From UHGV virus genome UHGV-0164984: a DNA stretch of 35,681 nt; one strand, given 5' to 3'. The notes below the pieces were generated by a model. The model was not told the DNA's origin. It did no database searches and saw nothing but the letters and a program-made list of their open reading frames with translations. The position numbers were made by a program, and so were the translations under genes. Numbering within the stretch: position 1 is the stretch's first letter; the number at the start of each line of letters is the position of its first letter. Positions 1,929 through 20,078 of this stretch are shown here, in pieces. The DNA comes from a virus.

Positions 1929-3107
1929 TTAACCAGTTTGAATTTCTCCATGGGGAACAACAACCCAATCTATATGGTTTTGCGTGTAGATCTTCGTCGA
2001 CTTCGCATCGCTATGCGCCATTCGTCCTTGTGGATCAATGCCTTGCTGATCGAAAAGATGCGCTGCTAATGCTCTAATTTCGTGAAAGGTTGGCCTTTCA
2101 TCCATCAGAAGATTGTCGCATAAACCTAACTTGTCGCGCGTAGCTGAAAATGACCGACTCAAATAGTCTGGTGCAACCTGAGTGGGGTGTGAAACCTCTT
2201 TGCTGCGTTTAACCTGCCGTTCTGGGAGCCTGTGAACGACAAACGGACTGGCCACATTATCTCGGCTATCGTCAATTATCCGTTTCAACTCTTCACCAAT
2301 TGGTATTGCAACGTGTGATGCCTCTTTTTTTTGCACTTTTTGCCTGTGGATGTAAAGCGTCCCATATATGCCATTTTGTGGTTGTTCGAACCAGACACAT
2401 CCACATATACCGTCTTTAGGTTCGCGAATTGAGTAACGGATTCGCGATACTTCGAGTCGTGCATGTGTAGTCTGCAATGCTAGGTCCATTGCTGTTCTTA
2501 ACCATGGTGCAGCGGCCTGCCTGATAGCTATAAAATGCTCGAGTGACAGGCGCCGTCTTTTCTTCTCATCAGTCCTACGCATTTTTTTTCTGATGGCCGG
2601 GTTATCCAGCATTAGTGATTCATCGACCGCATAAGAGAACAACTTTTTAAGAAAGCTGACCTTTCTGTTCTGCACATTTGCGGATGCGCTGGCATGATAT
2701 TTGTTGATGTAGGTATTAACGTGTTCAAGTTCGATATCGCATGCCGGAACATTTACGAAAAACGCTTTTACGCGTAGAGCGTCATTTTTCCAGTCATCTA
2801 AGGTGCTTTGGGAAGGACGTTCGTCTTCGATAATCCGGGTCATTATGTGATCAACATGTTCAGCAAATGGTTTTGCTTCTCCGATAACACCGCCAGATTC
2901 TCTAATAAGATTATCTACTGATGGAGATAATTCTGGTCGCATCCTCAGGTTGTACTCTCTGGCGATTGCAATGGCTATTGCCCTATCCTTACCTATATTT
3001 TTCTTCTTTCCGGTAATAAGTGTGAATTTATAAACACCTCGATCTTTATCAAAAATCAGATAATCAGGAAGATGTCTGTATTCTTTTTTACGTGGCCTTG
3101 CCGCCAT
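1929..3107 (-). CDS. Tyrosine-type site-specific integrase
   Basis: 392-394 aa ORF beside att and xis; C-terminal region with conserved R/H/Y-type catalytic residues (…HSDAKSTKIYTQ); second ATG at 3107 has GAGGG SD at 6 nt. Confidence 0.9.
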   Translation of the reverse strand: MAARPRKKEYRHLPDYLIFDKDRGVYKFTLITGKKKNIGKDRAIAIAIAREYNLRMRPELSPSVDNLIRESGGVIGEAKPFAEHVDHIMTRIIEDERPSQSTLDDWKNDALRVKAFFVNVPACDIELEHVNTYINKYHASASANVQNRKVSFLKKLFSYAVDESLMLDNPAIRKKMRRTDEKKRRRLSLEHFIAIRQAAAPWLRTAMDLALQTTHARLEVSRIRYSIREPKDGICGCVWFEQPQNGIYGTLYIHRQKVQKKEASHVAIPIGEELKRIIDDSRDNVASPFVVHRLPERQVKRSKEVSHPTQVAPDYLSRSFSATRDKLGLCDNLLMDERPTFHEIRALAAHLFDQQGIDPQGRMAHSDAKSTKIYTQNHIDWVVVPHGEIQTG

Positions 3108-3109
3108 GG

Positions 3110-3319
3110 TCATCCCTCATTTATTAACTTGCGAACAGCTTGACTAACCATTGAGTCGACTCCCCATTTTTCTGTTTCGCAGACAAAAACAGAACCGTCC
3201 ACGATGCGTCCCATGAGTAGACCGTTCTCGACCCAGCGTTTTATCGTTCGGTTGTCAGGAATTGAGCCATTAGAGAATTCACGGCGTCCCCATTGGCTCG
3301 CTTTCATTAGTTTTGCCAT
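3110..3319 (-). CDS. Excisionase (lambda Xis-like winged helix)
   Basis: MAKLMKASQWGRREFS...TIKRWVENG... parallels lambda Xis (…LQEWNARQRRPRSLETVRRWVREC…); GGAG SD 8 nt upstream of ATG at 3319; stop adjoins int start. Confidence 0.7.
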   Translation of the reverse strand: MAKLMKASQWGRREFSNGSIPDNRTIKRWVENGLLMGRIVDGSVFVCETEKWGVDSMVSQAVRKLINEG

Positions 3320-6007: not shown

Positions 6008-6682
6008 TTAGGCTTTGATTTTGTATCTTCTTGGTTTTCCTGAGAAAATCACTGTACCAATTATAGAGCAATTACCGTTGATCTTAATGTAAGGCTCAGG
6101 CCAGTTTGGGTTTAACGCTTTGAGATAACGCTGTGTCCCATCTTCTATCAACCTTTTGAAGGTGGTTTCACCTGTATCGTGCATCAATGCAATAACGTCG
6201 TCACCGTGGCAGGCAGGTACTTCAGGATCGACAAAAATCATGTCTCCCGGGCGGTACTCATCAATCATTGAATCACCTATCACCCGCAAGATATAAGTCA
6301 TTTCCCCACAGGGTACAGGGCAGGGATACGTTTCTGCTGTGCTCAAATCAACCTCAGAATATCCAACTTCTTTCCATGCTCCGGCCTGTACCCATGATAT
6401 GACAGGGACTAATGTGATTTGTTTATTAGTGATTGAAACATCAGGTTTTTTTGTGATGTTCGTTGTCTGGTGTTCTTGATCGAGCCATCCGACAGGCAGG
6501 TCGAAACATTTTTCGATGTGTCGTGCCATGCTGTCACCGATATTTTTAGTAGCACCATCTCCCATAAACCTGCTGGTCTGGGTTGGCTCGCGATCAATCA
6601 TAGTGGCAAAGGAAGAATTCCCGCCAACACCATCTCTCAGTTTTCTGGCGTTAGACCGCCGGATGTCATGGATTGTTTTCAT
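6008..6682 (-). CDS. CI-type phage repressor (HTH + S24 LexA-like peptidase domain)
   Basis: 224 aa; C-terminal GDSM serine motif and downstream Lys (TFKRL) typical of S24 autoproteolytic repressors; divergent from cro with operators between. Confidence 0.9.
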   Translation of the reverse strand: MKTIHDIRRSNARKLRDGVGGNSSFATMIDREPTQTSRFMGDGATKNIGDSMARHIEKCFDLPVGWLDQEHQTTNITKKPDVSITNKQITLVPVISWVQAGAWKEVGYSEVDLSTAETYPCPVPCGEMTYILRVIGDSMIDEYRPGDMIFVDPEVPACHGDDVIALMHDTGETTFKRLIEDGTQRYLKALNPNWPEPYIKINGNCSIIGTVIFSGKPRRYKIKA

Positions 6683-11877: not shown

Positions 11878-11894
11878 TTTTGTGGAGAAGGTTG

Positions 11895-12242
11895 ATGCGT
11901 GATATGTATGAAGTATTGGAGCGCTGGGGAGCATGGGCTACAGCAGATAATAGTGGCGTGGACTGGCAGCCGATAGCAGCAGGCTTCAAGGGGCTTTTAC
12001 CTCATGGCAAAAAGTCCCGGATTCAGTGTGATGATGATGAGGGGCTCATGATCGATGGGTGCGTAGCTAGATTAAGAAAGTACAAACCAGAAGAGTATGA
12101 ACTTATCGTTGCCCATTTTGTTATAGGAGTATCAATACGTACCATTGCAAAGAAAAGGAAATGTTCAGATGGGACTGTCAGAAAAGAATTGCAAGCCGCA
12201 ATTGGATTTGTGGAAGGCGTATTTAGTATTTTAAATATGTAA
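11895..12242 (+). CDS. Late-gene antitermination protein Q
   Basis: LERWGAWA...VDW...GFKGLLPHGKKSRIQCDDDEGL...IAKKRKCSDGTVRKELQ resembles Q-antiterminator family; precedes lysis region. Confidence 0.7.
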   Translation: MRDMYEVLERWGAWATADNSGVDWQPIAAGFKGLLPHGKKSRIQCDDDEGLMIDGCVARLRKYKPEEYELIVAHFVIGVSIRTIAKKRKCSDGTVRKELQAAIGFVEGVFSILNM

Positions 12243-12257
12243 GGGGCGGTGCCCCTT
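12230..12257 (-). terminator. Weak hairpin terminator between Q and the convergent MBL gene
   Basis: Stem AAGGGGC / GCCCCTT (12241-12257) with a U-rich stretch on the minus-strand side. Confidence 0.35.
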
Positions 12258-13347
12258 ATAAGCAAACAGCAGCGTAATGTGTTTCAACCTTAGGACTAGA
12301 CGTTAAGCAATTACTAACAGCAACTATTCCAAATTTATTGTTATTATTTGAAAATGAAACTGAACTTTTCATCTTCGCTAATATGCTCCGTGCTTCAGCA
12401 ATCGCAGGTGATTTTTCTTGAGCGTTATCACTTTTAGGCATCGATGTACAGTATAATGCTGATGATTTTGATTTGTAGAGGTCGATCATATCCTGCCGTG
12501 GTAGTGATGATTTATCATAAGTGGTTAAAATCGAAATAGGGTCTTTTTTGATTAGCTTGTTCCATGTTTCCTCATGAAAGCCTGTTTGGGAACCGTGGTG
12601 TGGAAGTTTGAAAATACCTGCTAAGTTTGGTTCTGGACGATTTATTGCATTGCAAACGGAATTCCATCCAGTGTTTTTACTAACTTCTAAATCTGCGCCT
12701 AATAATACTTCATTATTTTCTGATGTTGGAGAGCATATTCTGATTACAACGCAGTAGTGATTAGGATTAACTAATTTAGCAGACATGGCTATTTCGCTAA
12801 AATTTGATGATAATTTTGTAGAGTTTGCGAATTCAAGATCAGAGTTTGTTATATCCATATCAGAAGGCGATAACGAATGTACTTGAATATTCTCGCTGCT
12901 TTTGAATAGTATGCAGTCTTTTTTTGCATGGACAAGACGATCATTTTTGTGCAAATCATAGAATAAAGACATGACCTTGTTTATTTCTTTAGTTTTTGCC
13001 ATATCCTCACCATTAACACTTAGTGCATTAATATATCCTCTAAATTCAGATGTGTTCAATGCTGCGCTAATTACAACTTTTGCATTTTTGCAACTATTAA
13101 TAATTTCGGCTATCCCTTTAATATGATCATCGTGAAAATGACTAATGACTATCAGTTTTACTTCATCTTGTGGATTAACACCTTTTTCTTTCAGATAATC
13201 TAATGCTGCGGGGCGTTTATTATCATTTAAACAGGAATCAATAATCATCCATTCATTTAACCCAAGACGAACGACAATTGATTCGCCAATACCTTTACCA
13301 AAAACAATTGTTTCACAGATAGAGTTTTGAACAGTAGGCACCTGCAT
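12256..13347 (-). CDS. Metallo-beta-lactamase-fold hydrolase (distal gene of AT-rich cassette)
   Basis: 363 aa; HxHxDH motif SHFHDDH encoded at 13123-13143; additional His (KLPHHGSQ); AT-rich. Confidence 0.8.
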   Translation of the reverse strand: MQVPTVQNSICETIVFGKGIGESIVVRLGLNEWMIIDSCLNDNKRPAALDYLKEKGVNPQDEVKLIVISHFHDDHIKGIAEIINSCKNAKVVISAALNTSEFRGYINALSVNGEDMAKTKEINKVMSLFYDLHKNDRLVHAKKDCILFKSSENIQVHSLSPSDMDITNSDLEFANSTKLSSNFSEIAMSAKLVNPNHYCVVIRICSPTSENNEVLLGADLEVSKNTGWNSVCNAINRPEPNLAGIFKLPHHGSQTGFHEETWNKLIKKDPISILTTYDKSSLPRQDMIDLYKSKSSALYCTSMPKSDNAQEKSPAIAEARSILAKMKSSVSFSNNNNKFGIVAVSNCLTSSPKVETHYAAVCL

Positions 13348-13370
13348 TCACCGTATTGCGTAATTTCTAA

Positions 13371-13943
13371 TTATTGTTTAAAAATTCTTCTTAGGCGAAA
13401 TTCGGATACTCTTTTTTCTTGTCCAAATAAAGTTTTTTCCATACCAACATACCAATAAAAAATAGCGTTTTCGACAAGTTTTTGTTGATCGCTTTTACTA
13501 AATTCATCTGAAGAGAACGTTATCTCATCAATGAATTCATGAGAGTTTATATCATATACTCTAGCATGTATTTCTTTATTTGATTTCATATTGACAATTT
13601 TGTCAATTATACCATAAGTATCTAATGCCTTTTCAAGAAAGGTTATTTTTTCTTTAAGTCTTGCCTTGAGTTTTTTATGCTGAGTTCTATTTTTCACTCC
13701 TTTTTGTGTAGATGGGAATGGTTGCGGAGTAGGTATTTCAATTATATTTGTTGAATATTTTGAGCTGCAAGTTTCTTGCTGCTGTTCAAATGTTTCAGAA
13801 TAATTTTCAAAACCTGTCTTAATTATACAGGAAAGAGTTATGTTGTGGGTCTTTACAAATGTTTCAATGTTTTTTTCTTTTTTTGTTACGCAACGTGTAT
13901 TACTAAGGCTGGAAGAATTTTCAGGATAGGTTAATATATTCAT
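13371..13943 (-). CDS. Hypothetical protein (middle gene of AT-rich cassette)
   Basis: 190 aa ORF; start overlaps the upstream gene stop (ATGA at 13940-13943), implying translational coupling. Confidence 0.65.
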   Translation of the reverse strand: MNILTYPENSSSLSNTRCVTKKEKNIETFVKTHNITLSCIIKTGFENYSETFEQQQETCSSKYSTNIIEIPTPQPFPSTQKGVKNRTQHKKLKARLKEKITFLEKALDTYGIIDKIVNMKSNKEIHARVYDINSHEFIDEITFSSDEFSKSDQQKLVENAIFYWYVGMEKTLFGQEKRVSEFRLRRIFKQ

Positions 13944-14695
13944 GATAGAATCCGCTTAAACATTTGTTCATGGCTGAGGATATCATTCTTAATTGCTGCG
14001 GAAATATGTTTTTGAATTATATTTGGGAGTAATTGAGTGAATGCAACAGCGTCACGAATATCTTTCAAAGCTAGATCGTGATTGTATTGAACGTTTAAAC
14101 CAAATACATCTGGACTAACTTTTCTATACGAAGCATAAGAGACATTGATAGCCTCTTTGTAAATTGATTTATCTTCCTTGTTAGAGTTTTCTATTGCAAT
14201 GACTAAATTTCTCATCCCATAATGATATTCAACTTCATCCTGAAGTATTTCTGATTTATTGTGTTCTTGCCAATAAATTTTGGGGACTAATGCATCTCCT
14301 AACTGATTCCAGTTGGTTTCATTATTAAAATGATAATCAAAAAGGGTGTTTATTCCAACAGCTTGTGTCTCAGAATGAGGAAACATAGAAAATATTGATG
14401 ACACTAAGTCTGCCAAGGAATTTTCAAGCCCTGTTTTTTTCAGTTGAAATACTACTTTTGTTGGTATGCACGTAATCTCAATCCAACCGTAATCTGTTGT
14501 TATTGAATCACCATCAAAAGTTGTGTTTGAATTTGCTATATCTTCCTCTCTTAGCAAATCGTATCTTCTAAACCATTCAGATGAAAACATCAATGGAGTA
14601 ATGATGTTAGAGATCCATACAACATTAATCGTATGCTTAATAAGTTTGAAAGTCATAAATTGTTCTTGGCCCTCAGAATGAAAACCTAAGTGCAT
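13940..14695 (-). CDS. Hypothetical protein (first gene of AT-rich cassette)
   Basis: 251 aa ORF; alternative ATG at 14656 preceded by GAGGG; no recognisable motif. Confidence 0.65.
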   Translation of the reverse strand: MHLGFHSEGQEQFMTFKLIKHTINVVWISNIITPLMFSSEWFRRYDLLREEDIANSNTTFDGDSITTDYGWIEITCIPTKVVFQLKKTGLENSLADLVSSIFSMFPHSETQAVGINTLFDYHFNNETNWNQLGDALVPKIYWQEHNKSEILQDEVEYHYGMRNLVIAIENSNKEDKSIYKEAINVSYASYRKVSPDVFGLNVQYNHDLALKDIRDAVAFTQLLPNIIQKHISAAIKNDILSHEQMFKRILS

Positions 14696-15031: not shown

Positions 15032-15358
15032 ATGCCTCATAACCCAAATACCTGGCTGGAGTTGGTCCAGAGCTGGTGGCGTGGAGACACACCGCTGGGC
15101 GCAGTGATTATGTCGATTGTTATGGCTGGTTTACGTATTGCCTATTTTGGCGGTGGTGGCGGCTGGAAGCGAAAAGCACTCGAAATTCTACTCTGTGGCG
15201 CTCTGACGCTGACTTTTGCATCCGCTCTTGAGTATGTCGGATGGCCTAAATCACTATCTGTTGCCATTGGTGGTGGCGTTGGGTTGATCGGTGTCGATGC
15301 TATTCGTGGGGCTGCAATGAGAGTAATCGGTAATAAGTTTGGTGGCTCTAAGGAGTAA
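15032..15358 (+). CDS. Holin
   Basis: 108 aa with about three hydrophobic helices, charged C-terminus, GAGGTGAGAG SD, immediately upstream of endolysin. Confidence 0.7.
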   Translation: MPHNPNTWLELVQSWWRGDTPLGAVIMSIVMAGLRIAYFGGGGGWKRKALEILLCGALTLTFASALEYVGWPKSLSVAIGGGVGLIGVDAIRGAAMRVIGNKFGGSKE

Positions 15359-15361
15359 TTT

Positions 15362-15838
15362 ATGCAGGTACTAAATTCCCAGCGTAAAGCTTTCCTCGAT
15401 ATGGTGGCATGGTCAGAAGGAACGGATAACGGGCGACAACCGACACGTAACCACGGTTATGATATTATTGTTGGTGGTGAACTCTTCACTGATTACTCCG
15501 ATCACCCTCGCAAGCTTGTCACGCTAAACCCGAAACTCAAATCAACAGCTGCAGGCCGTTATCAACTTCTTTCGCGCTGGTGGGATGCTTACCGCAAGCA
15601 GTTAGGGCTGACAGACTTCTCTCCTAAAAGCCAGGATGCTGTTGCATTACAGCAGATTAAAGAGCGTGGCGCTTTACCGATGATTGATCGCGGCGATATT
15701 CGTCAGGCTATCGATCGTTGCAGCAATATCTGGGCGTCGTTACCTGGTGCAGGTTACGGTCAGTATGAACATAAAATCGGTGACCTGATTTCCCGGTTTA
15801 AAGAGGCTGGTGGGGTGGTAAATGAAGTTGAGCTATAA
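15362..15838 (+). CDS. Endolysin, lambda R-like lytic transglycosylase
   Basis: Near-identical over long stretches to lambda R as I recall it (…QRKAFLDMVAWSEGTDNGRQPTRNHGYD…). Confidence 0.95.
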   Translation: MQVLNSQRKAFLDMVAWSEGTDNGRQPTRNHGYDIIVGGELFTDYSDHPRKLVTLNPKLKSTAAGRYQLLSRWWDAYRKQLGLTDFSPKSQDAVALQQIKERGALPMIDRGDIRQAIDRCSNIWASLPGAGYGQYEHKIGDLISRFKEAGGVVNEVEL

Positions 15839-16214
15839 GCTGGTTATCGCTGCATTCTTCTTTACTGTCATCGGTTCTTTCATCTGGTCTGCCAACCACT
15901 ACTACAGCAAATATCAGCACGAAAAGAAACGTGCTGATGAGGCTGTACAAAATGCTGAATCTGCAACAGCCATTACCCGTAACGTCCTGCAATCACTGCA
16001 AATCGTCAATACAGTTATAGAGGTTAACCAGCATGCAAAACAGCAGATCGCACTGGAGTCACAGAGAACCCAGAAAGATATCAAAGTGGCTGTTGCGGAT
16101 GATGATTGTGCTGCACGCCTTGTGCCTGCTGCCGCTGCTGAGCGGTTGCGGAAGTACGCGGACAGTTTACGTACAAGTTCCGGCAGTACCACTCCCGACG
16201 AATCTGATCGCTGA
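15822..16214 (+). CDS. Rz-like i-spanin
   Basis: N-terminal TM segment, coiled-coil-like body, start overlaps endolysin 3' end. Confidence 0.8.
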   Translation: MKLSYKLVIAAFFFTVIGSFIWSANHYYSKYQHEKKRADEAVQNAESATAITRNVLQSLQIVNTVIEVNQHAKQQIALESQRTQKDIKVAVADDDCAARLVPAAAAERLRKYADSLRTSSGSTTPDESDR

Positions 16215-16356
16215 AACCTCGCAACCAGTTATTCCTGAGCCGCTGACTTTTGAGGGCAGCCTAGATTTGAACGTTAGTCTGTTATCGGCGTTGGGTCAAT
16301 GTAACCTTGACAAGGCTAGCATCAGACAGATTGAACAATCACGATTCTCACAATAG
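16099..16356 (+). CDS. Rz1-like o-spanin lipoprotein (overlapping Rz in another frame)
   Basis: MMIVLHALCLLPLLSGC lipobox, Pro-rich mature region; begins inside Rz in +1 frame and extends past the Rz stop. Confidence 0.6.
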   Translation: MMIVLHALCLLPLLSGCGSTRTVYVQVPAVPLPTNLIAETSQPVIPEPLTFEGSLDLNVSLLSALGQCNLDKASIRQIEQSRFSQ

Positions 16357-16504
16357 CGAGTTTTTATCATAAGAAAGGTGCTTTTCACTAAATCCCTGCA
16401 TTTGAAGCTGAAGATGGAAAGAAACGCTACTGGGTATACTACTACTGGTCGCTTATTCTGAATCAGAAGAGAACGGCGTCCTTCAGCTCGAAGAGTCGGT
16501 TATA

Positions 16505-16530
16505 AACAGGCACTTTGGGTGCCTGTTAAT
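16505..16530 (-). terminator. Hairpin downstream of the minus-strand accessory gene
   Basis: Perfect 9-bp stem AACAGGCAC / GTGCCTGTT with 5-nt loop, adjacent to the stop codon at 16533. Confidence 0.4.
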
Positions 16531-16532
16531 GA

Positions 16533-16928
16533 TTAGTCCTGCATGAATCTCTCTCTTTCTATTTCATAACCGTCGCTTTCTTCTCGGCAGTTTTGACATA
16601 AGAGATCTCCATAGTAACCTTGTAAGTTATAAGCTTCTTCTAGCTCATAGCCAGAGATAACCTTAGAGCAACCGTTATGGTGCCCGCCTGGATTTCTAAC
16701 ACCACCACATGGGTGAGAAAGGAAAGGTTGCAATACCCTCTTTTGCGGTGCAGAAAGACTATCAAATCCTTTGGTTACAGCTAACTTAGCGATTCCACTA
16801 ACTTTGCCATCTTCATGATAAAATGCGTCACAATTAAGCATTGTATTGAGTAATGATTCTACTTCGTCAGACACTGGAAATACCTCTCTATAAACAAAAG
16901 TAATAGCTATCACACAAAGCTTAAGCAC
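16533..16928 (-). CDS. Hypothetical Cys/His-rich accessory protein
   Basis: ORF of 131 aa (GTG at 16928) or 113 aa (GTG at 16874 with AGAGAGG SD); motifs HPCGG...GGHHNGC...CQNC. Confidence 0.5.
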   Translation of the reverse strand: MLKLCVIAITFVYREVFPVSDEVESLLNTMLNCDAFYHEDGKVSGIAKLAVTKGFDSLSAPQKRVLQPFLSHPCGGVRNPGGHHNGCSKVISGYELEEAYNLQGYYGDLLCQNCREESDGYEIERERFMQD

Positions 16929-17046
16929 ATAAACTAAAATAAATCAAAATGTTAATGATAATCGTATAGTAAAAAGAAAAGGCTGAAGTAGCCGAGAGGT
17001 AGCAATAGCAGGTTAAGGCAGGCACTTAGTAAGTGCCTGCCACTGG

Positions 17047-17256
17047 TTAGTAACAAGATGGTGTATTGTTGAATCTGTAAGAGAGGCGAACTATTTCAGA
17101 AACCCCTTTTCGGTTTAACAATCGCCTTATATTCTCTGGATTTTTGTAAATAAAAGGATTCCTTAGATCCTCGAACACTCCTCCTGCAATGCAAATCAAA
17201 TATTCCAGATCTTCTTGTGTTGGTAAGGTTGAAAGTTTGTTATTTGCATTATTCAT
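17047..17256 (-). CDS. Hypothetical small accessory protein (69 aa)
   Basis: ATG at 17256 with AGGAGC SD 6 nt upstream; same strand and composition as 16533-16928. Confidence 0.45.
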   Translation of the reverse strand: MNNANNKLSTLPTQEDLEYLICIAGGVFEDLRNPFIYKNPENIRRLLNRKGVSEIVRLSYRFNNTPSCY

Positions 17257-17377
17257 TTTACAGCTCCTAATTATTGCCGTTATTGGCGTGGTGCATGATA
17301 GGAAGTTTGTGATTTTTAACGGTAGCTGGGGCAAGCTTTTTGTGAATCCTATGCACATCATCAAATCGAGTTTTTCA

Positions 17378-17728
17378 ATGCCACAACTAACCCCAAAAGC
17401 CTGCCGTGTTCGCGGCTGCCGCCATACCACTACTGACCCGTCAGGCTACTGCGAAAGCCACAAAAGCGAAGGCTGGAAGCAATACAAGCCAGGCCAGTCC
17501 CGACACCAGCGCGGTTATGGTTCGAAATGGGATGTTATCCGTGAACGTGTGCTCAAGCGTGACAAAGGCCTGTGCCAGTTGTGCCTGCGTGCTGGTGTGG
17601 TGCGCGAGGCGAAAACCGTTGACCACATCATCCCTAAAGCGCATGGCGGCACTGATGCCGACTGTAATCTGCAGAGTCTGTGCTGGCCGTGTCATAAGGC
17701 GAAGACGGCCCGTGAACGGTTGAAGTGA
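17378..17728 (+). CDS. Phage HNH endonuclease (terminase-associated)
   Basis: CxxC...DHIIPKAHGG...CWPCH HNH motif; immediately upstream of terminase small subunit. Confidence 0.85.
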   Translation: MPQLTPKACRVRGCRHTTTDPSGYCESHKSEGWKQYKPGQSRHQRGYGSKWDVIRERVLKRDKGLCQLCLRAGVVREAKTVDHIIPKAHGGTDADCNLQSLCWPCHKAKTARERLK

Positions 17729-17853
17729 TAATAATTCTCAACTGCCTGAGGGGAGGGGCGGGTCAAATCCCTGCGGCCTGATGTCTTCCGGACTGCCCGC
17801 CCCATCGTTTTTTTATACCCGCGAAAAATGAAATTTAACCAGGAGTGCCGCAT

Positions 17854-18348
17854 ATGGCTGGAACGGTGGGGCGTTCCGGGCGTCGCCCCAAGCCAACGGC
17901 GCGCAAGGCGCTGGCCGGAAACCCCGGCAAGCGAGCCCTGAATAAAGATGAACCTGTTTTTACGCCTATCAAAGGTGTTGAGCCACCGGAGTGGTTCGCT
18001 GAAGAAGATCTCCCTCTCGCTACGATCATGTGGCAACTGACAACTAAAGAACTCTGCGGTCAGGGCCTGCTGTGCGTGACTGACCTCGCGGTGCTTGAGC
18101 GGTGGTGCGTGGCCTACGAGTTCTGGCGACGTGCCGTGAAAAATATTGCCAGACAGGGCAACACCATCACCGGTGCAATGGGCGGTATGGTCAAAAATCC
18201 GGAGCTGACCGCCAAAAAAGAACAGGAGTCCGAGATGAGCAGTACGGGGGCAATGCTCGGACTCGACCCCAGCAGCCGCCAGCGTCTGATTGGTCTGGCG
18301 GGGCAGAAGAAAGCCACTAACCCGTTTCTGAAAATTATCGAATCATGA
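17854..18348 (+). CDS. Terminase small subunit (P27-family-like)
   Basis: AGGAG SD 8 nt before ATG at 17854; basic N-terminus; directly precedes terminase large subunit. Confidence 0.8.
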
Positions 18349-20078
18349 GCCGGAAATCTTACCCCAACGTAAATGCTGCCAATCAGTATGCCCGTGATGT
18401 CGTGCGCGGAAAGATTGTGGCCTGCCAGTTTGTGATTCAGGCCTGCCAGCGCCATCTTGATGACCTGATGGCGGAAAAAAGTAAGTCGTTTCGTTACCGC
18501 TTCGACAAGGACCTGGCTGAACGGGCCGCCAAATTTATTCAGCTGTTGCCGCACACCAAGGGTGAGTGGGCATTCAAGAGGATGCCCATCACGCTGGAGC
18601 CGTGGCAGCTCTTTGTGATCTGCTGCGCGTTTGGCTGGGTCAATAAAGGCTCCCGGCTGCGCCGCTTCAGGGAGGTGTATACCGAAATCCCCCGTAAGAA
18701 CGGCAAATCGGCAATCTCTGCCGGTGTCGCCCTGTATTGTTTTGCCTGTGATAACGAGTTTGGCGCGGAAGTGTATTCCGGTGCCACGACGGAGAAACAG
18801 GCGTGGGAAGTCTTTCGCCCGGCGCGACTGATGTGTAAACGCACACCCATGCTGACGGAAGCGTTCGGGATTGAGGTTAACGCCTCAAACATGAACCGTC
18901 CGGAGGATGGCGCGCGGTTTGAACCGCTGATCGGTAACCCCGGTGATGGTTCATCACCCCACTGTGCTGTGGTGGATGAATATCACGAGCACGCCACCGA
19001 TGCGCTTTACACCACGATGCTTACCGGGATGGGGGCGCGACGTCAGCCACTGATGTGGGCCATCACCACCGCCGGGTACAACATTGAGGGGCCGTGCTAC
19101 GACAAGCGGCGGGAAGTCATCGAGATGCTCAACGGCTCGGTGCCTAACGATGAACTGTTCGGGATCATCTATACCGTTGATGAAGGTGACGACTGGACCG
19201 ACCCGCAGGTGCTGGAAAAAGCCAATCCAAATATTGGCGTGTCGGTTTATCGCGAATTTTTGTTAAGTCAGCAGCAGCGTGCGAAAAATAACGCCCGTCT
19301 GGCAAACGTCTTTAAAACAAAACACCTCAATATCTGGGTGTCGGCGCGTTCGGCGTATTTCAACCTGGTGAGCTGGCAGAGCTGCGAGGATAAATCACTG
19401 ACCCTTGAGCAGTTCGAGGGGCAGCCGTGCATTCTGGCCTTTGACCTGGCGCGTAAGCTGGATATGAACAGCATGGCGCGACTTTATACCCGCGAGATTG
19501 ACGGTAAAACGCATTATTACAGTGTGGCCCCGCGTTTCTGGGTACCGTATGACACGGTGTACAGCGTCGAGAAAAATGAAGATCGACGGACAGCCGAACG
19601 CTTTCAGAAATGGGTGGAAATGGGCGTTCTGACCGTTACCGATGGTGCGGAGGTGGATTATCGCTACATCCTCGAGGAGGCCAAAGCGGCGAACAAAATC
19701 AGCCCGGTCAGTGAGTCACCCATCGACCCCTTCGGGGCGACCGGGTTGTCACATGACCTTGCTGATGAAGACCTGAACCCCATCACTATCATTCAGAACT
19801 ACACCAACATGTCCGACCCGATGAAAGAGCTGGAAGCGGCAATTGAATCGGGGCGCTTTCATCATGACGGCAATCCCATCATGACCTGGTGTATCGGCAA
19901 CGTGGTCGGCAAAACCATTCCGGGTAACGATGATGTGGTGAAGCCCGTCAAAGAGCAGGCGGAAAACAAAATCGATGGTGCAGTTGCGCTGATTATGGCG
20001 GTTGGCAGAGCCATGCTGTACGAGAAAGAAGACACGCTGTCTGACCACATTGAGTCCTATGGGATCCGCTCGCTTTAA
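18345..20078 (+). CDS. Terminase large subunit
   Basis: 577 aa; ATPase and nuclease-like regions; ATGA overlap with small subunit. Confidence 0.95.

Follow-up and report, generated by a model that had tools for sequence, protein, structure and literature searches.

Two probable moron genes in a cargo hotspot between the lysis and packaging modules of a lambdoid Escherichia coli prophage, one of them encoding a candidate zinc-binding inhibitor protein

New anti-phage mechanisms that need a single protein have recently come from small antisense genes in the late region of prophages, such as tab and terI. In Pseudomonas phage JBD26, Tab (tail assembly blocker) is an 83-aa protein without similarity to any known domain, encoded on the minus strand between the genes for the terminase's small and large subunits (terS and terL) and under its own promoter; it is expressed from the prophage and blocks the tail assembly of invading phages (PMC10884400). 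TerI, of the TERi system found in Listeria comK prophages, is the product of a 65-aa antisense gene that is constitutively transcribed in lysogeny; it blocks the DNA packaging of invading phages, and its conserved locus hosts alternating unrelated small genes (bioRxiv 10.1101/2025.02.27.640495). Morons (definition of Juhala/Hendrix, quoted in PMC2629481) are exemplified by lambda bor, HK97 gp15, and the P22 “ant moron”. Here, we analyze two small minus-strand genes, which we call geneA and geneB, from the UHGV virus genome UHGV-0164984, whose whole stretch of 35,681 nucleotides is referred to below as the window. The window is a lambdoid Escherichia coli prophage, kin of SfI and HK97, and the segment holding the two genes consists of prophage morons sitting in a cargo hotspot, which is a known kind of element. 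Our complete reading, which we consider somewhat likelier to be right than wrong, is that of a horizontally acquired cargo made of two stacked morons, of which geneA would encode a prophage-expressed zinc-binding protein inhibitor.

The cargo cassette (16358-17376) runs from the stop codon of the lysis gene Rz1 (16033-16356) to the start codon of an HNH endonuclease gene (17378-17728) and contains both genes. Its GC content is 36-44%, vs. 47-58% in the flanks. The preliminary description of this DNA, made from the letters alone, had proposed to look for presence/absence polymorphism among related prophages, and the segment is indeed polymorphic: among 5426 complete E. coli genomes, 2791 match part of a 2.9-kb query covering the slot, and only 5 of the 5426 carry its middle, the carriers including Shiga toxin-producing E. 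coli (STEC) and bovine isolates. In relatives whose flanks are 85-96% identical, similarity ends at 16304-16365, level with the Rz1 stop codon or slightly before it, and resumes at 17368-17378, that is, at the HNH start. Other fillings found in relatives are no gene at all (291 or 418 bp), a DUF2513 protein accompanied by a small hypothetical protein, or a hypothetical protein of 145 aa, of 168 aa, or, in SfI, of 124 aa. Segment 16358-17376 would, thus, be a horizontal cargo in a recombination-prone slot, with the lysis cassette on one side and the HNH-terS-terL packaging module on the other.

The borders themselves carry a short repeat. The 9-mer CGAGTTTTT occurs just twice in the 35.7-kb window, on the plus strand at both cassette borders, directly after the Rz1 stop codon (16357-16365) and 2 nt before the HNH ATG (17367-17375), and flanks a 1001-bp insert; these copies could be a microhomology recombination junction or could be due to chance. 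A transposon or a miniature inverted-repeat transposable element (MITE) was discarded as an explanation of this flanking repeat, as the cassette ends are devoid of terminal inverted repeats. A separate observation comes from a viral contig, L012 (IMGVR_UViG_2547132417_000012, locus 3351 leftwards), where the cassette with geneA and geneB is followed by an HNH gene truncated at the window equivalent of 17524 and fused there to a lambda-type Nu1-like terS of 164 aa and a terL of 700 aa. From this mosaic junction, which lies inside the HNH gene, it follows that the cargo moves together with the lysis side, recombining freely.

Within the cassette, two single-gene moron units would be stacked head to tail, both antisense to the late operon and each composed of a 5′ region, a gene with its Shine-Dalgarno (SD) sequence, and a 3′ hairpin. 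The perfect 9-bp hairpin already pointed out at 16505-16527 is real and far more stable than shuffled sequence: on the minus strand, its stem AACAGGCAC/GTGCCTGTT closes a 5-nt loop and folds at −13.7 kcal/mol (z −3.7), the plus strand folding at −19.2 kcal/mol (z −4.4). It is terminator-like, with a weak U tract (UUUAUAA). A second hairpin, absent from the preliminary description, lies on the minus strand directly after geneB (17017-17041); its 12-nt arms are 100% complementary and it folds at −21.3 kcal/mol (z −3.2). Both hairpins have in common a 7-bp stem core, CAGGCAC/GTGCCTG (16507-16525 and 17019-17039 of the window), which starts 7 nt past the TAA stop codon of geneA as well as of geneB, even though the two genes are unrelated; this shared stem pattern has only these two sites in the window and was found in 0 of 100 shuffles. 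At the locus called L005, which holds the sole diverged homologue of geneB, the hairpin is kept after the gene (786-806) as CAGGCAT/GTGCCTG.

On the 5′ side, the region upstream of geneA (16875-17016, minus strand) is AT-rich, with a GAGAGG SD sequence 8 nt before the GTG start codon and an 8-bp palindrome, ATAGCTAT; the promoter of geneA is presumed to lie in this region, and that of geneB in the divergent intergenic region between geneB and the HNH gene (17257-17377), which is conserved along with geneB in L005. Indeed, when the geneB unit is compared with L005, conservation extends from the start of the HNH gene through the hairpin of geneB and, more generally, DNA similarity of each unit to its homologues elsewhere begins about 100 nt upstream of the start codon, runs to the hairpin, and then ends. 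Because each gene has its own 3′ hairpin and a similarity bounded by that hairpin, each looks like its own expression unit. No LexA box (CTG-N10-CAG) was seen by eye upstream of geneA or geneB, an Rfam scan of 16200-17900 returned no RNA family, and no consistent site emerged when 20 family loci were scanned with relaxed promoter criteria.

The two ORFs (open reading frames) are themselves real. The preliminary description had seen a Cys-rich minus-strand ORF, opposite to its flanking genes, and a 69-aa minus-strand ORF with a strong SD sequence, and both are present. The longest ORF of geneA spans 16533-16928 (131 aa); alignment of homologues and the PGAP annotation place the start codon at the GTG in 16874, resulting in a gene at 16533-16874 (minus strand) that encodes a 113-aa protein of isoelectric point (pI) 4.9, identical to the RefSeq product WP_001361772.1, which PGAP labels “hypothetical protein”. 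GeneB (17047-17256, minus strand) starts with an ATG preceded at 7 nt by AGGAG (17264-17268) and encodes a protein of 69 aa and pI 8.7. Homology searches, which had been suggested as a check, show that both ORFs are conserved and that they match only PHROG families of unknown function: geneA matches phrog_12178 over its full length (E 6e-57) and geneB matches phrog_22590, likewise over its full length (E 1e-40). As both families are labelled “unknown function”, this membership is uninformative on mechanism. Between geneA and its Klebsiella homologue (76% aa identity), non-synonymous change per site (pN) is 0.14 and synonymous change (pS) 0.80, the latter being saturated; between geneB and its homologue in L005, the ratio of non-synonymous to synonymous substitution rates (dN/dS) is 0.33. 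Judging from the PHROG matches and from these signs of purifying selection, geneA and geneB are real genes and not chance ORFs.

Cysteines are the most constant feature of the geneA protein. Across 45 diverse members of its family, C56, C93, and C96 never vary and C69 is retained in at least 90%, with a family spacing of C-x12-C-x23-C-x2-C. The Cys/His motif initially proposed is, thus, to be restricted to its four conserved cysteines, as the histidines vary across the family. The AlphaFold2 model is of high quality, with a pLDDT (predicted local distance difference test) of 92 and a pTM (predicted template modelling score) of 0.80; in it, three N-terminal helices are followed by a short beta element, which bears the first two of the cysteines, and by a long C-terminal helix beginning at the CxxC. 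Together, these four cysteines most likely bind a single zinc ion. Neither geneA nor geneB has a match in Pfam, NCBIfam, or PADLOC scans (E values up to 1-10). For geneA, family profiles found no match among PDB sequences, its fold has no relative in PDB or BFVD, the 45 family members compared with Pfam at E up to 5 did not point to any recurring family, and no catalytic motif is present. The two proteins have a grand average of hydropathy (GRAVY) of −0.58 for geneA and −0.51 for geneB, and acidic or polar N termini (VSDEVESLL... and MNNANNKLSTLPTQED..., respectively); their sequences contain no signal peptide, lipobox, or transmembrane segment. We, thus, picture geneA as a cytoplasmic, acidic, and compact protein of about 110 aa that would be stabilized by zinc through its cysteines.

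A word-indexed search of 5.8 billion proteins returned 12 clusters for geneA and two for geneB, and 1.84 billion cluster representatives, searched in full with an HMMER profile, brought the geneA relatives to 67 (about 67 clusters at 50% identity). These relatives are almost all free-standing proteins of about 100-120 aa, and the family is acidic, with a median pI of 4.66. It belongs mainly to Gammaproteobacteria (Escherichia, Klebsiella, Enterobacter, Erwinia, Pectobacterium, Pseudomonas, Vibrio, Halomonas, and Marinobacter). To describe its genomic context, we used a set of about 100 geneA loci drawn from viral and genome contigs. The gene is common in prophage-derived contigs (76 loci), vs. 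one of 50,697 sequenced phage records. Its homologues are typically antisense to both neighbours and sit at the lysis-terminase junction of gammaproteobacterial prophages, with the end of the lysis region on the 3′ side (Rz is found there in 39 loci) and a packaging gene adjoining on the 5′ side in at least 65 of about 95 loci. At least four types of packaging module are found beside the family: the 5′ neighbour is a Terminase_2 terS in 33 loci, a PhageMetallopep/DUF2280/Terminase_3 module in 11, and an HNH gene with a P27-type terS in 9, while in 6-7 loci geneA is flanked by a 321-aa terS and by terL. A position between terS and terL is seen in L006, in loci related to it, and in L016. In Klebsiella prophages, geneA stands alone in the same slot as in the window, 152 bp from an HNH-like gene.

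Signals around the gene recur in part of the family. A GC-rich hairpin, often with a T run, is found within about 25 nt of the stop codon in most of the 67 distinct homologues of geneA. In the Terminase_2 terS subgroup (L039, 3965-3997; L058/L062 group), only 27 nt separate the start codons of the divergent terS and geneA, and any geneA promoter in this subgroup must, therefore, lie inside the terS coding sequence. In another subgroup, in which geneA adjoins a PhageMetallopep gene, six loci (L017, L019, L021, L022, L027, and L031) have a conserved intergenic inverted repeat, GTGATTT-N(19-21)-AAATCAC, about 60-100 nt upstream of the geneA homologue, a possible operator that would point to regulated expression of geneA in that subgroup. 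The sole recurrent late-strand neighbour of geneA homologues is a gene of 69 aa (45 loci), which is absent from the window. We considered it as a self-immunity partner and discarded it, because it is also found in 14 phage records without geneA. At diverged chromosomal loci, the neighbours of geneA include an integrase and an IS66-type transposase; there, PADLOC matched three of six hand-picked large neighbours (PDC-S49, DzbB, and a type I methyltransferase), which is to be taken as anecdotal.

GeneB has a very different distribution. By tblastn against the same loci, it is found in six near-identical E. coli copies and in L005 only; extending its family by profile search, by a scan of viral contigs, and by a degenerate-pattern scan of metagenomes recovered only the same E. 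coli prophage and L005. The gene is left unannotated by PGAP in all RefSeq genomes that carry it (for example, E. coli PF9285, NZ_CP038791.1, around 2808290-2808500), and small genes such as this one are probably under-counted in protein databases. The predicted structure of its product is all-helical and of low confidence (pLDDT 64.5), and its family profile had one chance match only among PDB sequences and no informative fold or sequence match. In L005, the geneB homologue adjoins the HNH gene as it does in the window, and is followed not by geneA but by an unrelated HTH_3 gene of 173 aa. Upstream of the latter, at 935-990, two direct copies of the palindromic TTCCTGTCAGGAAATTA look like an operator for HTH_3 autoregulation. 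GeneB is, thus, a separate, very rare, basic helical protein tied to the HNH-proximal edge of the slot.

The preliminary description had seen an independently expressed accessory pair in these two genes. The accessory nature of the cargo, variable and AT-rich, holds, as does the separate structure of the units; what does not hold is the functional pair. The spacer between geneA and geneB is 172 nt long and contains the strong hairpin described above (−21.3 kcal/mol), and geneB is missing from all geneA loci (about 100) outside a single E. coli prophage lineage. We are, hence, fairly confident that geneA and geneB are two independent moron units rather than a pair.

What could geneA do for the prophage? 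Late transcription driven by the Q antiterminator must run antisense across both genes and would oppose their expression during lytic growth, which suggests that they are expressed mainly in the lysogen. Being antisense to late transcription and having its own stop signal, geneA is, therefore, probably made from the resident prophage. As the protein is acidic and compact, without catalytic, membrane, or export signals, it would, therefore, work by binding another protein. Its likeliest role would be in phage-versus-phage conflict, where it would bind and block a partner protein, for example, at an assembly or packaging step of an incoming phage. What we infer for geneA, then, is that it binds zinc, that it is expressed from the prophage, that it inhibits a partner by binding it, and that it has any role in defence. 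That the protein is a prophage-expressed inhibitor of incoming phages is a proposal that we make tentatively, by analogy with described systems. With equal reserve, we suggest that geneA might found a new small zinc-binding family, maintained antisense at the lysis-terminase junction by gammaproteobacterial temperate phages, whose members would be made from the prophage and block the assembly or packaging of competitors or disarm host immunity.

Several points weigh against this reading. A consensus terminator scan calls neither hairpin, and the U tracts are poor; a sigma-70 consensus scan gave no promoter for geneA or geneB; and the 27-nt spacing between terS and geneA in many family members forces any promoter into terS. 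Neither in sequence nor in fold does geneA resemble Tab or any defence or anti-defence model, and no linked self-immunity partner was found among the late-operon neighbours of the geneA loci. The evidence from defence neighbours is anecdotal, as those neighbours were hand-picked.

Among the other functions that can be imagined for geneA, the one that survives best, unlikely as we consider it, is counter-defence: its own promoter would drive geneA as soon as the DNA has entered, and the protein would act as an acidic decoy or inhibitor of a host defence. The family is indeed acidic and small, without enzymatic features, and one diverged homologue lies beside the methylase of a type I restriction-modification system. 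The position of the cassette is also favourable. In the linear record of SfI, the homologous HNH gene is the final gene and the record stops 75 bp beyond it; the cos end would, therefore, be about 75 bp past the HNH gene, which puts the segment with geneA and geneB 0.4-1.4 kb from the right end of virion DNA, the whole cassette being within about 1.4 kb of that end. One has to keep in mind that the right end of lambda DNA is injected first. However, geneA matches no known anti-defence family and has no fold relative, and morons expressed in lysogeny typically have this layout of a single antisense gene with its own hairpin. Moreover, geneA is found in just one of 50,697 phage isolate records, although many prophages have it.

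We find it improbable that geneA is a factor of its own phage, tuning terminase or late transcription, a role that would account for its position next to terS. Packaging genes of four module types do adjoin it in most loci, its start codon is 27 nt from that of terS in some of them, and in one subgroup a palindrome is conserved upstream of the gene; but geneA is antisense to the late operon and is dispensable, being found in 5 of the 2791 genomes matching any part of the 2.9-kb slot query. The terS families alongside are unrelated to each other, so that a specific cognate interaction is unlikely; besides, diverged members are found in islands that are not phages, and the acidic pI argues against DNA binding.

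Slightly less probable again is host-directed lysogenic conversion, in which geneA would be a virulence or fitness factor like Bor, Lom, or SodC, acting on the envelope or on the host. Lambda bor has the same antisense position after Rz as the segment with geneA and geneB, the cargo is AT-rich, and STEC and bovine isolates are among its carriers. On the other hand, neither protein has a signal peptide, a lipobox, or a transmembrane segment, and a family that is found in environmental Pseudomonas, Vibrio, Halomonas, and Marinobacter is ill-suited to host-specific virulence. The lysogenic-conversion function put forward in the preliminary description is, thus, possible only as a broad accessory role expressed from the prophage, the signal peptide or lipobox of the Bor/Lom type being absent.

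As for a toxin-antitoxin pair, also suggested there, with geneB as a co-transcribed antitoxin or regulator of a geneA toxin that would serve prophage stabilization or abortive infection, it is very unlikely: the two genes do point the same way, the upstream one encoding a small basic protein and the next a larger one, and are intact in every near-identical copy, but a 172-nt spacer with a −21 kcal/mol hairpin right after geneB separates them, about 100 geneA loci lack geneB without any other conserved small partner on the same strand, the geneB homologue of L005 lies beside an unrelated HTH_3 gene, and neither protein resembles a toxin, antitoxin, or defence protein in Pfam, NCBIfam, or PADLOC (E up to 1-10).

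Elsewhere, the window carries an integrase (1929-3113), an S24 repressor (6008-6682), the Q antiterminator (11880-12242), a lambda-family holin (15032-15358), a lysozyme (15362-15838), and Rz (15822-16214) preceding Rz1 and, beyond the HNH gene, a P27-type terS (17845-18348) and terL (18345-20078). A second cargo block lies on the minus strand between the Q and holin genes (12256-14695) and comprises three genes (363, 190, and 251 aa) with a GC content of 29-33%. Its 363-aa protein has a metallo-beta-lactamase fold and is matched in PADLOC by RTasMBL (E 4e-12) and LmuA (E 2e-7). The cargo of this slot differs in close relatives, PF9285 having two hypothetical proteins there and H1827/12 a Kiwa KwaB-like pair; the slot between Q and the holin is probably a defence-system slot.

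Returning to geneA as a prophage-expressed inhibitor, such an activity, if true, would add a zinc-dependent and structurally unprecedented class of inhibitors, analogous to Tab and TerI, and the slot between Rz and the terminase genes of SfI/HK97-like coliphages would be a place to seek more genes of this kind. If there is no such activity, geneA and geneB are merely further moron genes. A screen for defence or counter-defence functions could reasonably include geneA.

How, then, do these genes compare with the systems described to date? Like the morons of lambdoid and HK97-like phages, geneA and geneB occupy a fixed site where cargo alternates and is present or absent among close relatives, and they are delimited units in or beside the late operon with a base composition unlike that of their neighbours; they differ from characterized morons in that their products are unrelated to those already described and that consensus scans brought out neither a promoter nor a canonical terminator for them. 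Homology between geneA and Tab was considered and rejected, given an hhalign probability of 0.2% and a BLASTP search that returned no alignment. Unlike Tab, which has a cognate anti-Tab gene overlapping terS, geneA has no such gene that we could find, and its four conserved cysteines are not present in Tab. TerI, for its part, belongs to a Gram-positive system, is part of an early module, and comes with two self-immunity proteins, all of which set it apart from geneA. What geneA does have in common with Tab is to be small and antisense in or beside the packaging genes, its homologues in L006 and L016 even lying, as tab does, between terS and terL; with TerI, it has in common to be small, antisense, and located in a locus of alternating cargo. 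The resemblance of geneA to Tab and TerI is, by this analogy, one of architecture only.

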